Part shown: positions 868 to 39,097 of the stretch, one piece after another
How positions within the stretch are numbered: the first letter of the stretch is position 1
Layout of the letters: each line of letters opens with the position of its first letter
Source: Escherichia phage EC.W14-3
Direction: 5' to 3' (one strand)
Length of the DNA: 64,000 bases
Sequence record: PP496998.1
Made by a program: the position numbers and the translations under genes
Notes under the pieces: generated by a model
What the model was told of the DNA's origin: nothing
Database searches by the model: none
The model's input: the letters and a program-made list of their open reading frames with translations, nothing else

Positions 868-876
868 AAATGTATA
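868..876 (+). promoter_or_regulatory. AAATGTATA, near-match to recurrent TAATGTATA promoter-like motif
   Basis: 1 mismatch to the 9-mer; 40 nt upstream of ATG 916 in gene orientation. Confidence 0.3.
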
Positions 877-915: not shown

Positions 916-1245
916 ATGTTAGATTTGAGTAAAGTGGCCCCGCCCACTGAAGAGATTACAAAATCCAAGGTGATGCAACAGTTTTATCATCGTGATATGC
1001 TTGGTCGCTTTATCAAGAATCGTGATGTTGTTGCTTGGTCTATTGGTAATCAGGGATATCTGTTGAAGGTTCTTCAGGTTACAGGCTCAACTGCTAAGCG
1101 AGTTAAGGTGTATGACCCTGAAATGGGGCGTTCTAAGTCAGTAGACCCACAGAACTGCATCGTAATTACCCAGCAGGTAATGGATAATATTGCACGTAAC
1201 GTTGCTAACTCAGTTGAACTTGATGGAGAAAACCCAAATGCATAA
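916..1245 (+). CDS. hypothetical protein
   Basis: 109 aa ORF; GGAG RBS (acaggagagagttATG). Confidence 0.5.
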   Translation: MLDLSKVAPPTEEITKSKVMQQFYHRDMLGRFIKNRDVVAWSIGNQGYLLKVLQVTGSTAKRVKVYDPEMGRSKSVDPQNCIVITQQVMDNIARNVANSVELDGENPNA

Positions 1246-1801
1246 GAATGTTTTTGATTTACCTGAGATTGGTCGTGACAGTTATAGTATGTTAGACCGG
1301 TCTGATCTTTCAATCTCTCGCCTTGAAACAATGCAAGGCATGATTAGTGCAAACAGCCTAGAACACATCCTGAGCTGCTTACAAGCTAACATGGAACTAT
1401 TGCATATCAAAGCTAAAAACTACCACTGGAACGTCTCTGGTGCAGGATTTCAGGGTGTCCATGGTATGTTTGATGAGCTGGAAGATTACGCACGACAGGT
1501 AGGAGATCGTATTGCTGAACGTATGCGTTACCACTGTGTTAAAGTGGATGCTACAGCAGCTAATTATCTTTCTCATGCTTGGTTCTCAGAGGGGAATGCT
1601 GATCTAGACATGGACGGTATGCTCTCTGATATGTGCATGACCTTGATGTGTATTATTGAGAAGATGGATGAGTTTGATGGTGATTTAGCCTCCCACCCTG
1701 TCGATCAGAGTATGCTTCAAGAAATTAATGAAGGTCTTGGCAAGTATTGCTACTTCGTCAAGAGCAACATGTCCCATTCAAGTGGTGACGTGTCTTACTA
1801 A
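1238..1801 (+). CDS. Dps-like ferritin-family protein
   Basis: KNYHWNVSGAGFQGVHGMFDELEDYARQVGDRIAERMR matches Dps ferroxidase-region signature (HWN..G..F...H..F); start set at ATG 1238 overlapping upstream stop. Confidence 0.7.
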   Translation: MHKNVFDLPEIGRDSYSMLDRSDLSISRLETMQGMISANSLEHILSCLQANMELLHIKAKNYHWNVSGAGFQGVHGMFDELEDYARQVGDRIAERMRYHCVKVDATAANYLSHAWFSEGNADLDMDGMLSDMCMTLMCIIEKMDEFDGDLASHPVDQSMLQEINEGLGKYCYFVKSNMSHSSGDVSY

Positions 1802-1861
1802 AACCTCCGCCCTGTCTCCTAACCCGAGGTGGGGCGAACTTATTTATAAGGATATAGATAT

Positions 1862-2041
1862 ATGTTATCAGCAATCGTATGGGGTATTTGGGCTATCTTT
1901 ATTGGTGGTGGTATTTATTGGGCTTCTGGTAAGCTTATTGAAGAAACTCCTGATAAGAAAGGTGAAATTCAAACAGCATCAACCATCATGGTTATTGTAG
2001 CTGTTGTTATCCCGTTCCTACTTCACCTCCTGACTGCATAA
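1862..2041 (+). CDS. small membrane protein (59 aa, two hydrophobic segments)
   Basis: ATG after AGGA RBS; MLSAIVWGIWAIFIGGG...IMVIVAVVIPFLL; below the track length cutoff; preferred over overlapping track ORF 1728-2000. Confidence 0.3.
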   Translation: MLSAIVWGIWAIFIGGGIYWASGKLIEETPDKKGEIQTASTIMVIVAVVIPFLLHLLTA

Positions 2042-2049
2042 GGATTTAC

Positions 2050-2325
2050 ATGTCTAAAGTAATTAAGTTTTATAGCGATCAGTGTGCTCCATGTAAAGCA
2101 ATGGCTCCTACCTTTGAGAAGGTTGTTAAGGAGTTTGATGTAGAAGTGGAAGAGATTAACATCCTTGAAGGTGATGGTCGTGAACAAGCTGTTAAGTATG
2201 GTGTACGAAGTATCCCTGCTTTCGTTGTGCCTGACCGTAACAGTGGTGCGCACTACAGCCTCTCCGGTATGCAGACTGAAGCAAACCTGAAAGCATTTTT
2301 GGACACAGCCCTGAGAAATAAGTAA
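2050..2325 (+). CDS. thioredoxin-like protein
   Basis: CAPC active-site CxxC in thioredoxin context (FYSDQCAPCKAMAP), downstream cis-Pro region VRSIPAFVV. Confidence 0.75.
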   Translation: MSKVIKFYSDQCAPCKAMAPTFEKVVKEFDVEVEEINILEGDGREQAVKYGVRSIPAFVVPDRNSGAHYSLSGMQTEANLKAFLDTALRNK

Positions 2326-2340
2326 TAAGGATATTCACGG

Positions 2341-2997
2341 ATGAATGAACAACTACAAGCAACATTAATCGAAGCTATGGGAAGTGATCGTAGCGTAGTA
2401 AACGCAGCTCGAGTTTCCTTTGGCGTAACCCGTGAAGGTGATTTAAATGAACGTGATGAACGTCTCATCAACTTTCTCGCAAGAGAGAAGCATGTTACCC
2501 CATTCCGACACCCGCAAGTCAGTTTCCGATGCAAAGCACCTATCGCAATTGCGAGACAGCTGGGCAAGCATCAGGTTGGATTCTCGTGGAACGAAATGTC
2601 CCGGCGGTATAAAGATGGAGCAGTTGAAGTCTTCATCCCTAAAGAGATTTTTGCGAGACCTTCGGACCTCCATGCAGGTTCAGGGATTCAACTCATCGAC
2701 GGAGAGCGAGCTGAAGCATTAATGCTGATTAATGATGCATATGAAGCTTCTCTAGCAGCATATGACAAGTTGATTGAATTTATTGCACCAGAGCAGGCTC
2801 GATTTGTTCTTCCTCAGGGGATGATCACTGAGTGGGTGTGGACTGGTTCTTTGTATGGCTGGTTTGAGTTGTGCCGTCAGCGACTCTCCTCTCACGCTCA
2901 ATATGAAGTTCGAGTGTTTGCTAAATCTCTAGATGAAGAGATGGCTAAACTCTACCCAATCTCGTGGGCAGCTCTGAAGAAAACTTTGGAGAGTTAA
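2341..2997 (+). CDS. thyX: ThyX-like FAD-dependent thymidylate synthase family protein (variant signature)
   Basis: APIAIARQLGKHQVGFSWNEMSRRY aligns to ThyX [23 protein letters not shown]; canonical RHR replaced by KHQ. Confidence 0.65.
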   Translation: MNEQLQATLIEAMGSDRSVVNAARVSFGVTREGDLNERDERLINFLAREKHVTPFRHPQVSFRCKAPIAIARQLGKHQVGFSWNEMSRRYKDGAVEVFIPKEIFARPSDLHAGSGIQLIDGERAEALMLINDAYEASLAAYDKLIEFIAPEQARFVLPQGMITEWVWTGSLYGWFELCRQRLSSHAQYEVRVFAKSLDEEMAKLYPISWAALKKTLES

Positions 2998-3393: not shown

Positions 3394-3627
3394 ATGAAGA
3401 TAAAACATATTACAGATATTCAGGAGGCATTTAGAATGCTTCCTCGAAGAGAGAAAGATAAGATTAAGAAGCTTATTCAAGTCTATGGTCATACATCTGA
3501 AGGTGATGTAGATTATATGCCTGCCACTTTTAGAGAATGCGGAATTGCTCGTAATTTCACATTTGATCATAAAGTATTTCAGCAATTCGTTGACCACTGG
3601 AGAAAAGATGGAAAAGAAAGTCTGTAG
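3394..3627 (+). CDS. hypothetical protein
   Basis: 77 aa ORF. Confidence 0.35.
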   Translation: MKIKHITDIQEAFRMLPRREKDKIKKLIQVYGHTSEGDVDYMPATFRECGIARNFTFDHKVFQQFVDHWRKDGKESL

Positions 3628-3793
3628 CTTCTGTAATAAAGAGAAGACTGTCGCCAACTTTAAACCTAATCCTGTAACTGGTCTGACCCATGTCATGTGC
3701 CACTCTTGCAGGATATATCTTGAAACAAAACACACTATCAATAGATTGCATTATTATCACCCAACAACATTCAAATTTAAGGTTGTGAAATGA
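3608..3793 (+). CDS. small zinc-ribbon protein
   Basis: MEKKVCSFCNKEK...MCHSCRIY, two CxxC pairs; internal ATG of track ORF 3545-3793. Confidence 0.35.
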   Translation: MEKKVCSFCNKEKTVANFKPNPVTGLTHVMCHSCRIYLETKHTINRLHYYHPTTFKFKVVK

Positions 3794-4119
3794 TTGACAG
3801 TAATACATTTAGGACTTCAAATGGAAGTGAAATAAGTCCCGCTGAAGTAATCAATCGGCATAGAAGGCAATTGATCATCCATTCCTATTTGTATTACTGG
3901 TTGGATGACCCTATCTGGTCTGATGATAAATGGCAACAAGTTGCTAATGATCTAGTGGAGCTGCAAGCTCTGTATCCAGAGCCTACCGGAGTCTTTGACA
4001 GTGAGTTCAAAGATTGGGATGGTTCTACAGGGATGCACCTCCCACACAATGAGACTGTTGCTTGTATGGCGACAGCTGTTTACAGGATTCATAAAGATAT
4101 GAACCATGAAGTGCTCTAG
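3790..4119 (+). CDS. hypothetical protein
   Basis: 109 aa ORF, start overlaps upstream stop. Confidence 0.45.
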   Translation: MIDSNTFRTSNGSEISPAEVINRHRRQLIIHSYLYYWLDDPIWSDDKWQQVANDLVELQALYPEPTGVFDSEFKDWDGSTGMHLPHNETVACMATAVYRIHKDMNHEVL

Positions 4120-4291
4120 ATGTGAAGGAACAAACCTTCATTTAAGTAACAAGGTTATCAGAGAGCTTGCCAAAGGCTCTCCAACCAAAGGGAAGAACAA
4201 ACGATTTACTAACGTCAGGGTTTATACAGCAATCTGCAAAGACTGCTTAACTACTGAGTGTCATTACGAAGAAATTGGAGAGCGTAAATGA
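4106..4291 (+). CDS. small zinc-ribbon protein
   Basis: 61 aa; CSRCEG...CKDCLTTEC. Confidence 0.4.
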   Translation: MKCSRCEGTNLHLSNKVIRELAKGSPTKGKNKRFTNVRVYTAICKDCLTTECHYEEIGERK

Positions 4292-5025
4292 GTCGTCGTC
4301 AATCACGGAAAGAATCACGGAAAGACCTTCGTCGAGAAGCACTTGTTACTCGTAAGGGTAAGCGAGAGTATGAAGAGGTGGTTTTAGCAAAGCCTGTAGT
4401 CCCTCAGAACCAGTTTCAGTCTGAGCTACTCAATGCTATTAAGACTAAACAAGTTGTGTTCACAGACGCTCCTGCGGGCTGTGGTAAGACCTTTGTAATC
4501 ACTTCCACGGTTATTGATGCACTGAAGAGTGGTAAGATTCAGAAGATCATCCTGAGTCGACCTTCAGTTGGCATGGGTAACTCTCTTGGGTTACTTCCGG
4601 GAGGAATGCGTGAGAAGTTTGAACCATACCTGATGCCTATCATTGATGTTATTACTCAGCGATACGGTAAGGGATTCTATGAATGCCAAATCGGAAATGG
4701 TAACATTGAATTTGTACCTCTGGAATATCTCCGTGGTCGCTCTTTCAACGATGCCATTGTTATCGTAGATGAGTTCCAGAACACAACTAAGGATGAAGCC
4801 TTCTCCATCATGACTCGATTGGGAGAAACCTCTCAATTGTTCTGTATGGGTGATACAAACCAGCATGATATGCGTGGTCGCGAGAGTGGTCTAACTTGGG
4901 CTACTAACTTTATTGATGAACACGATCTGTATGAGTTTGCTGAGATTGTAGATGGTGAATCAGATGATATTGTTCGTTCTGGTTTCTGTAAGGCGATTGT
5001 TAAAGCAATGGAAAAGAAAGCTTAA
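4288..5025 (+). CDS. phoH: PhoH-like ATPase
   Basis: Walker A DAPAGCGKTF, Walker B IVIVDEFQN, PhoH-type spacing. Confidence 0.85.
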   Translation: MSRRQSRKESRKDLRREALVTRKGKREYEEVVLAKPVVPQNQFQSELLNAIKTKQVVFTDAPAGCGKTFVITSTVIDALKSGKIQKIILSRPSVGMGNSLGLLPGGMREKFEPYLMPIIDVITQRYGKGFYECQIGNGNIEFVPLEYLRGRSFNDAIVIVDEFQNTTKDEAFSIMTRLGETSQLFCMGDTNQHDMRGRESGLTWATNFIDEHDLYEFAEIVDGESDDIVRSGFCKAIVKAMEKKA

Positions 5026-5036
5026 ACAGTAACTTA

Positions 5037-5045
5037 TAATGTATA
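5037..5045 (+). promoter_or_regulatory. TAATGTATA promoter-like motif
   Basis: exact 9-mer 37 nt upstream of ATG 5082, gene orientation. Confidence 0.4.
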
Positions 5046-5081
5046 CTCCTTAGTGTACACTGATATATTAAGGAGTTTTAA

Positions 5082-5399
5082 ATGGCAGATCATGTAGGAA
5101 AGAGAGATTATGCACAAGAAAGACGTACCGCAATTGCCCGTGGTGAGACAGGCGTTGGGAGCAAGAGCGGAGATGCTCAGCGCCACCGTGCACGTCGCAT
5201 CGTTGAAAAGCGCGATGGAAAAGCTGCTGTCAGAGGTAAAGACGTTGGACACAAACGAGCTGTCAAGTCTGGAGGCTCTAATGCGTCAAGCAACTTACGT
5301 GTTGAATCAGTCAGCTCAAACCGTTCAAACGGCGGCAAAAGTGGTGATCGAGCTGGAAAAGCAAACGGAGCTAGGAAGGGGGCGTTGAGTGGTTCTTGA
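5082..5399 (+). CDS. basic Gly/Lys/Arg-rich protein
   Basis: strong RBS AAGGAG; codon position-1 G bias supports this frame over overlapping track ORF 5110-5388. Confidence 0.45.
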   Translation: MADHVGKRDYAQERRTAIARGETGVGSKSGDAQRHRARRIVEKRDGKAAVRGKDVGHKRAVKSGGSNASSNLRVESVSSNRSNGGKSGDRAGKANGARKGALSGS

Positions 5400-5880
5400 T
5401 GACACCTTATCTTACGATGCGGTCACAGGTAACCTATATTACACAAAATCTCCTAGCAAAGGAGTGATGTGGAACAAAAGCCACCCCGGAAAGATAGCTG
5501 GATGTATGATATCGAAAGGCTATATCGGTGTGTATTTCCAAGGAAGACGATGGAGAGCGCACCGACTTATAGCTACGCACTTTATACCAAACCCTAACAA
5601 TTATCCAGAAGTCAACCACATCAATGGGATAAAAGACGATAATCGACTGGAGAATCTTGAATGGGTATCCGCTTCTGAAAACATACAACATTCCTTTGAT
5701 ACAGGGTTGAATAAAGGGCACACTCGTGACAATAACGGAATGACCAAATTATCCTCTGGAGATGTTGTAAAGATTAAACAGATGTATGTGAAGGGTTCTA
5801 GGGATTTTGGCTCTAGAGGTCTTGGTAAGTTGTTTGGCGTGAGCCATACAGCTATACTCCATGCTTTAAAGGAGCTTTAA
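5389..5880 (+). CDS. HNH homing endonuclease
   Basis: HRLIATHFIPNPNNYPEVNHINGIKDDNRLENLEWVSASEN HNH motif; GTG start at 5389 or ATG at 5467. Confidence 0.75.
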   Translation: MVLDDTLSYDAVTGNLYYTKSPSKGVMWNKSHPGKIAGCMISKGYIGVYFQGRRWRAHRLIATHFIPNPNNYPEVNHINGIKDDNRLENLEWVSASENIQHSFDTGLNKGHTRDNNGMTKLSSGDVVKIKQMYVKGSRDFGSRGLGKLFGVSHTAILHALKEL

Positions 5881-11729: not shown

Positions 11730-12147
11730 AACTTATATCCTTTACTTTTTAGCTTTCTTAGGAATAGTCTTTTTATCTATTCTTATTGAATTTGGTTTAA
11801 GTAAGTTAGTTAATTATTTAGGTAATAAGTAATTAATATTCTTTTAAATAGAGAATCAAAGTCCCTAGGAGTCCCTACAACCTAAATCAAGGATTCCTTA
11901 ATTCTCTATTTTTATCTCGCAGGTGGCTCCTGCCCTTCGGTACTTGCAAGGGATTCTGTGAATTGCCCAATATACAAGCCTGCAATAACTTTATCAGCTA
12001 TACAATATATACATTACTAGTGTGATATATCTACTACCAAAGATACTTATATTATATAGTACTCTTATCGGTATAAGCGTAATGTATACTATACATAACC
12101 GCTCAAAGAGAGCAACAATCTTTCAAATTAAATAAGGAAATTAAAAT
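11730..12147 (+). promoter_or_regulatory. AT-rich intergenic region upstream of SSB-like gene
   Basis: 418 bp without ORFs; TATA-rich repeats; TAATGTATA at 12080-12088 (plus) and its reverse complement at 12008-12016. Confidence 0.4.
12080..12088 (+). promoter_or_regulatory. TAATGTATA promoter-like motif
   Basis: exact 9-mer 60 nt upstream of ATG 12148. Confidence 0.4.
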
Positions 12148-22258: not shown

Positions 22259-22267
22259 TATACATTA
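22259..22267 (-). promoter_or_regulatory. TAATGTATA promoter-like motif (minus strand)
   Basis: reverse complement of tatacatta; 39 nt upstream of ATG 22220. Confidence 0.4.
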
Positions 22268-39088: not shown

Positions 39089-39097
39089 TATACATTA
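39089..39097 (-). promoter_or_regulatory. TAATGTATA promoter-like motif (minus strand)
   Basis: exact 9-mer 34 nt upstream of ATG 39055. Confidence 0.4.

Follow-up and report, generated by a model that had tools for sequence, protein, structure and literature searches.

E. coli Dps binds DNA through a Lys-rich tail, and many Dps proteins devoid of a basic tail, such as Dlp-1 and Dlp-2 of B. anthracis, do not bind DNA. The characterized members of the family prefer H2O2 as oxidant, and the induction of dps in E. coli depends on host transcription. Dps genes are also carried by bacteriophages and are already documented in several phage groups. Published examples include Lactobacillus myophages, as well as the gut 'Gratiaviridae' and 36 other gut phage genomes, for which protection against oxidative damage was proposed, and this proposal is thus already in print. 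Among the phiEco32-like phages, the SU10 paper lists a Dps-domain protein among the few middle genes common to all five C3 phages, and the RefSeq text of phiEco32 gp67 (phi32_67, YP_001671812.1) reads 'DNA binding protein; member of the Dps family'. In the searched literature, we found no experimental study, biochemical or genetic, of any phage Dps.

Here, we analysed a stretch of 64,000 nucleotides from Escherichia phage EC.W14-3 (PP496998.1), hereafter called the window. The window belongs to a Kuravirus, i.e. a phiEco32-like prolate podophage, and its first 6 kb are 100% identical to the Escherichia phages EC.W2-6 and EC.W8-1. An earlier note made from the sequence had proposed that this phage encodes a Dps-like ferritin with a ferroxidase signature, and the profiles, the ligands, the predicted fold and the selection acting on the gene all agree with this proposal. 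The closest described system is phiEco32 gp67, together with its Kuravirus and Suseptimavirus orthologues (e.g. SU10 CDS67). The protein of the window is 98.4% identical to phiEco32 gp67, its gene has the same neighbours (gp68, gp66, thioredoxin and ThyX), the promoter and hairpin sequences are identical and, the label aside, we noted no difference of substance. phiEco32 has carried the Dps annotation from its first record (2008) onwards, and the identification is therefore correct but ordinary.

Identification of the gene product as a Dps-family mini-ferritin

The coordinates of the gene and of the surrounding features are given in Table 1. The ORF listing and a check of the sequence place the start codon ATG at 1238 and the stop codon at 1799-1801, for a product of 21.2 kDa. 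A Shine-Dalgarno sequence, GGAG, lies 9 nt 5' of this ATG, and the Dps start overlaps the stop codon of the upstream gp68-like gene in ATGCATAA. A TTG at 1190 was considered as an alternative start and dropped in favour of ATG 1238, because of the Shine-Dalgarno spacing, the N-termini of the homologues and the annotations of all the records.

Table 1. Features of the Dps locus (positions in the window)
Feature	Position	Strand	Remarks
Candidate phage-sigma (gp36) middle promoter, AAATGTATA	868..876	+	40 nt 5' of the gp68-like ATG
gp68-like gene	916..1245	+	109 aa, PHROG 10984; stop overlaps the Dps start
Dps-family mini-ferritin gene, phiEco32 gp67 orthologue	1238..1801	+	187 aa; profile, ligand, fold and selection evidence
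Lineage-specific acidic N-terminal extension, codons 1-45	1238..1372	+	MH(N/K)NxFDLP conserved, linker variable, S..RLE.M helix
Ferroxidase-centre region	1424..1519	+	H63, W64, H75, D79 (helix A/B side); D90, E94 (partner-subunit side)
G+C-rich hairpin of 11 bp, then interrupted T-run	1808..1836	+	-15.5 kcal/mol, z -2.4; directly 3' of the Dps stop
gp66-like protein gene	1862..2041	+	59 aa, PHROG 9296; apparently hydrophobic, membrane-like
Phage thioredoxin gene	2050..2325	+	PF00085
Flavin-dependent thymidylate synthase (ThyX) gene	2341..2997	+	PF02511

Several lines of evidence show that the 187-aa product is a Dps-family mini-ferritin with intact ligands and a predicted Dps fold. In a profile search against the Dps/ferritin family, PF00210 (Ferritin) was the sole Pfam match, with 31.2 bits for a gathering cut-off of 24.5, and PHROG 3636 (phrog_3636) matched residues 35-180 with E = 1.5e-54. 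A sequence search of the PDB returned ∼30 Dps chains with E < 1e-4, and the top matches (E ∼1e-9) were all Dps proteins, namely M. smegmatis Dps2, B. anthracis Dlp-2, B. subtilis MrgA and B. brevis Dps. The ferroxidase-region motif HWNVSGAGFQGVHGMFDELEDYARQVGDRIAERMR corresponds to residues 63-97, and by sequence this match is far above chance expectation. The conservation of the ferroxidase ligands, on which the proposal of the earlier note depended, was borne out. All five ligands and the adjacent Trp are present, their codons were confirmed against the nucleotide sequence, and H63/W64/H75/D79/D90/E94 align to H51/W52/H63/D67/D78/E82 of E. coli Dps. The ligands and W64 are invariant in 15 close homologues, down to 48% identity. 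We also searched 1.84 billion representatives exhaustively and aligned 169 of the sequences obtained; H63, H75 and D90 are found in 169/169 sequences, and E94 and W64 in 166/169.

The AF2 model, with a mean pLDDT of 81 and values of ∼90-95 across most of the core, predicts helices at residues 41-65, 72-98, 125-150 and 154-177, plus the short BC-loop helix (107-112) that is typical of Dps. When this model was compared with the PDB using Foldseek, the top 50 matches were all Dps or Dps-like, with a TM to target of up to 0.90 and an rmsd of 1.1 Å to 1jig over 137 residues. A 24-mer ferritin or bacterioferritin was rejected, as the fifth (E) helix of these proteins is absent from the AF2 model and the ligand pattern is of the Dps inter-subunit type; moreover, neither ferritin nor Bfr appeared among the best PDB matches by sequence or by Foldseek.

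The phage protein shares the four-helix bundle and the BC-loop helix with the Gram-positive and actinobacterial-type Dps dodecamers, i.e. M. smegmatis Dps2 (2z90/4m35), B. anthracis Dlp-2 (1jig), MrgA (2chp) and S. aureus Dps (2d5k). These proteins also have the same five ligands and the Trp, for an identity of 22-27% and an rmsd of 1.1-2.4 Å over ∼140 residues. However, the phage protein adds to this scaffold an acidic extension of 45 aa at the N-terminus and a C-tail of 10 aa, and by alignment it carries PVDQ in place of the acidic pore motif. The host protein, E. coli Dps, belongs to the same family and has the same ligand positions, whereas its phmmer match to the phage protein is marginal (E ∼0.1-0.2) and its Lys-rich N-terminal DNA-binding tail has no counterpart in the phage protein. 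In addition, the NCBIfam equivalog of E. coli Dps (NF006975) gave 34.9 bits, far below its cut-off of 114, which indicates a divergent member of the Dps family rather than a copy of the host gene. From the marginal phmmer match, the equivalog score and the missing Lys-rich tail, we conclude that the phage did not recently capture its Dps from the host.

Substitution patterns show that the gene evolves under what is evidently purifying selection, the dN/dS of the whole gene against phiEco32, MLP3 and ECBP2 being 0.04-0.06. For the N-terminal extension, the ratio (omega) against the same phages is 0.02-0.2. In the AF2 model, residues 1-23 of this extension are disordered, and a helix is placed at 19-37 with low confidence. 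The composition of the gp67-like Dps includes five Cys and 8% Met, besides the 10-aa C-tail. By alignment alone, the acidic iron-entry pore residues D121/D126/D130 of Listeria Dps correspond to D149/P154/S158, beside which lies a conserved PVDQ motif that includes D156. As P154/S158 and PVDQ replace the acidic pore residues, iron entry may differ from the pore type of Listeria Dps.

Organization of the locus

In phiEco32, gp36-dependent promoters have been located by experiment upstream of six genes, among them gene 68, and the gp36 promoter consensus is tAATGTAtA (PMC8948821). The AAATGTATA element of the window and its upstream block are identical in phiEco32. They are also invariant in MLP3 and ECBP2, even though synonymous sites in Dps have reached saturation when these phages are compared. 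Promoter matches with one mismatch occur at chance level across the window, and the assignment of AAATGTATA therefore rests on its position and on the published mapping. A scan for sigma-70 promoters around the Dps gene gave no more than chance level. Five perfect matches to TAATGTATA are scattered over the two strands of the window, at 5037-5045, 12008-12016 (-), 12080-12088, 22259-22267 (-) and 39089-39097 (-).

Because the stop codon of the gp68-like gene overlaps the Dps start, the two genes are probably translationally coupled. The invariant residues of the gp68-like protein include H25-R26-D27, W41, G44, P78, N80 and N95-V96. This protein had no match in Pfam, NCBIfam or the PDB, the latter including a search with the gp68-family profile. 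Its secondary structure suggests a small beta-barrel, in an AF2 model that is poor (pLDDT 50). On the other side of the Dps gene, the hairpin is identical in phiEco32, and MLP3 and ECBP2 keep the stem with a changed loop; it is a putative terminator-like or attenuator element. The phage-sigma middle promoter, the gp68-like gene, the Dps gene and the hairpin thus make up a conserved unit within a replication and nucleotide-metabolism block.

Some other features of the window were noted. Three tandem paralogues of 65-69 aa, all belonging to PHROG 4939 and each ending in ...KV(I/H/Y)Y, are located at 228-425, 425-634 and 634-843 of the window, between a dCTP deaminase and the gene-68 promoter. 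An HNH homing-endonuclease-like ORF of 163 aa with a GTG start (window 5389-5880) is present in some relatives and absent from many, and several close relatives cover 87-93% of the first 6 kb; together, the patchy ORF and the incomplete coverage are consistent with mobile insertions in the block. Finally, the 109-aa product of 3790-4119 matches phrog_6466 ('DNA ligase') and goes under the name NAD-dependent DNA ligase in several records, a doubtful label given that a complete ligase is far longer than 109 aa.

Gene context in related phages

In Privateer, the Aeromonas phage LAh_8 and GAP52, a gp68-like gene lies directly 5' of Dps and overlaps or abuts its start; in phage 7-11, it is found beside thioredoxin, 1.3 kb upstream of Dps. 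The pairing of the gp68-like gene with Dps is kept across Kuravirus, Suseptimavirus, Privateervirus, Crifsvirus and Lahexavirus. A gp68-like neighbour was found in 8 of 87 Dps loci, all of them from prolate-podophage lineages. We therefore rejected the gp68-like protein as a general partner of Dps and consider the pair a lineage-specific module.

In the phages compared, Dps is always located in a replication and nucleotide-metabolism block, with thioredoxin and usually ThyX nearby. Thioredoxin neighbours the gp68-like/Dps pair in Privateer, 7-11 and GAP52, and ThyX is directly upstream of Dps in 7-11. Directly 3' of Dps, GAP52 carries a full-length NrdD (3457-5589 of locus L009). At the same position in Privateer, 7-11 and LAh_8 lies a gene for a stand-alone ATP-cone protein of ∼90-99 aa (L003 5398-5694, L004 5411-5710 and L005 4429-4701; PF03477 with E = 2e-20, 2.5e-7 and 1.4e-11 in Privateer, 7-11 and LAh_8). 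The ATP-cone protein of Privateer is annotated 'ribonucleotide reductase'. Such separate ATP-cone genes may be what is left of NrdD, or regulators that have split off from it. In LAh_8, moreover, NrdD and NrdG are encoded <3 kb from Dps. Thus, Dps of prolate podophages elsewhere is followed by NrdD or ATP-cone genes, both of which Kuravirus lacks. A search of the window for ribonucleotide reductase (RNR) genes (NrdD, NrdG) or an ATP-cone gene found none, and for this reason a link between RNR and the Kuravirus Dps is drawn by analogy with the relatives.

Distribution of phage Dps genes

Dps is present in essentially all the phiEco32-like records: ∼97 of them have the gene at ≥80% identity, compared with 98 records that match the region at all. 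At 25-45% identity, Dps was detected in Salmonella 7-11-like, Proteus, Cronobacter and Aeromonas prolate podophages, in one cyanophage and in Streptomyces phages. The other phage Dps proteins (Grimontviridae 7-11, Privateer and GAP52; Aeromonas Lahexavirus; Lactobacillus myophages; gut 'Gratiaviridae'; cyanophage S-SRM01) belong to the same PHROG and Pfam family, are usually encoded in DNA-metabolism regions and have been given a role in oxidative stress in the literature. They differ from the protein of the window in being compact (144-156 aa), with short basic N-tails and 25-45% identity. The earlier note had called a phage copy of Dps uncommon. Such genes are indeed relatively rare, but a Dps match was found in 136 of 50,697 phage records and a Dps relative in at least 378 IMG/VR contigs, and the family has its own PHROG, has long been annotated and is discussed in papers.

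Dps fusions were also observed on viral contigs (L049 661-2889; P0099 and P0149), with proteins of 743 aa carrying DUF5824, of 777 aa carrying two Dps domains and of 334 aa carrying phrog_16075. Alongside these, BFVD holds Dps-fold entries named 'Prohead protease' (A0A6J7XDU5, A0A6J7WPK9 and A0A6J7WIS1).

Proposed role of the phage Dps

The best explanation of the whole, to which we assign a probability of roughly 0.6, is a Dps cage that is made in the middle phase and detoxifies Fe2+ and H2O2 during replication. The four-helix-bundle subunit would, by homology, assemble into a hollow cage of 12 subunits. Its ferroxidase centres would lie at the dimer interfaces, with H63, H75 and D79 contributed by one subunit and D90 and E94 by its partner. 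From the phage-sigma promoter 5' of gene 68, Dps would be transcribed during the middle (replication) phase, as the second cistron of a gp68-Dps unit. The soluble cage would then oxidize Fe2+, preferentially with H2O2, and store the ferric product. Fenton chemistry would in this way be suppressed during phage DNA replication and dNTP synthesis, which would limit damage to the replicating DNA and to redox-sensitive enzymes that make dNTPs. The neighbouring enzymes that bear on this are thioredoxin and the flavoenzyme ThyX in this phage and, in its relatives, an anaerobic RNR that is sensitive to oxygen. In air, the reduced flavin of ThyX releases H2O2; for an oxidase or H2O2 side-activity of ThyX, our search found no usable literature. 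The phage would need a Dps copy of its own, because in phiEco32 gp79 inhibits host sigma-70 transcription (PMC8948821) and would hence block any induction of host dps. Protection against oxidative damage is plausible and fits the gene context, and the same role has already been proposed in papers for other phage Dps genes. However, the presence of the Privateer Dps in CsCl-purified virions runs against a purely soluble role, which does not predict it, and the soluble-cage model gives no account of the conserved gp68 partner or of the N-terminal extension.

Several other readings of the gene were weighed against the detoxifying cage. In the record identical to the window, it is called 'integrase' (PP445229.1, 8482-9045, or 2501-3064 of locus L002; WYA78358.1), a label also present in MLP3 (L007), IME267, ES17 and many other Kuravirus records. 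The support for an integrase consists of this product label, whereas the protein, of 187 aa, has Ferritin as its sole Pfam match, adopts a Dps fold according to Foldseek and matches no recombinase catalytic domain in Pfam, PHROG or NCBIfam. Furthermore, papers describe the phiEco32-like phages as lytic, with explosive lysis. A tyrosine or serine recombinase is refuted by Pfam, the PDB sequence matches and Foldseek, and the chance that the label is right is negligible. A reading closer to the family is that of the earlier note, which had suggested a protein that coats DNA or alters the host nucleoid, i.e. a DNA-binding, nucleoid-compacting protein acting on phage or host DNA like Dps in stationary-phase E. 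coli. Some members of the family bind DNA, the gene lies within the replication module, and the compact Dps of the relatives Privateer, 7-11, GAP52 and LAh_8 (Grimontviridae/Lahexavirus), free of the acidic extension, have short Lys/Arg-containing N-tails. However, the protein of the window is acidic, with a pI of 4.78, and its residues 1-45 comprise one Lys, three Arg, four Asp and three Glu, for a net charge of -3. Its C-tail SNMSHSSGDVSY has neither Lys nor Arg, and the flexible Lys/Arg-rich N- or C-terminal tail of E. coli-type Dps is absent. In addition, Dlp-1/2 of B. anthracis, which are among the closest structural matches, do not bind DNA, and the 'DNA binding protein' annotation derives from the family name, not from an assay. 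Given the low pI, the acidic residues of the N-terminal extension and a C-tail free of basic ones, DNA coating in the manner of E. coli Dps seems unlikely, and this part of the earlier note is disfavoured.

A further reading places the cage inside the prolate capsid or attached to it, so that it would travel with the particle and protect encapsidated or incoming DNA, or carry iron. In SU10, MS identified 6 peptides of gp67 (CDS67), covering 35.8% of the protein, and 2 peptides of the gp68 orthologue. However, the particles had been prepared with PEG only, and DNA polymerase, thioredoxin, PhoH and the sigma factor were present in the same sample; the detection shows expression only, and in view of the PEG-only preparation we discarded it as proof of virion association. 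The result for Privateer is harder to dismiss, as the Dps homologue was found by MS beside ten structural proteins in particles from CsCl step and equilibrium gradients, although a dense iron-loaded 12-mer could co-band with the phage. The Kuravirus-specific N- and C-terminal extensions, which have no assigned role, and the BFVD Dps-fold proteins of uncultured phages annotated as 'Prohead protease' might also point to the capsid. However, no protease domain was found in P0099, P0060, P0145, P0147, P0149 and P0164, the long Dps proteins that the exhaustive search had yielded, or in the 743-aa ORF of L049, which contain Ferritin/PHROG 3636 and domains of unknown function only, and the gene of the window is a middle gene of the replication block, outside the late structural cluster. 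Taken together, a virion-associated Dps is very unlikely. The cage could instead act as an iron reservoir that hands host iron to enzymes of dNTP synthesis (NrdG/NrdD in the relatives and the host di-iron NrdB in Kuravirus), with the gp68-like protein as adaptor. In favour of an iron donor are the intact ferroxidase ligands, a gp68-like partner that is conserved and probably coupled in translation, and the close linkage of Dps with NrdD, ATP-cone and NrdG genes in GAP52, Privateer, 7-11 and LAh_8, NrdG being a [4Fe-4S] activase. Against an iron donor, RNR genes are missing from the phage of the window, the AF2 model obtained for the gp68-like protein is unusable and specific donation of iron to RNR is not known for any Dps. 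An iron donor also overlaps in mechanism with the protectant, the chemistry being shared and the beneficiary different, and we place it on the unlikely side. Finally, rather than Dps acting alone as a stress protein, the gp68-like protein and Dps might form a dedicated two-protein device, retained by prolate podophages beside thioredoxin and anaerobic RNR, either for handling iron and peroxide for radical-based dNTP synthesis or as cargo that the lineage-specific tails of Dps direct to the capsid and that is carried in the virion. The capsid-targeting alternative is hinted at by the CsCl/MS result for Privateer, and we give the device as a whole a small chance of being correct.

Implications

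The identification of Dps as such adds little, and what is added here is modest: the unit formed by the promoter, gp68, Dps and the hairpin, the linkage to thioredoxin and anaerobic RNR, the argument against DNA binding and the 'integrase' mislabel. The last of these has a practical side, as a wrong and widespread 'integrase' label could flag strictly lytic phages that are therapeutic candidates as temperate when phages are screened for therapy. The coupling to the gp68-like gene, together with the link to thioredoxin and anaerobic RNR in the relatives, gives a concrete and testable hypothesis. A Dps that is conserved, expressed and strongly selected in a tractable E. coli phage makes a good model for the management of iron and peroxide by phages during replication.
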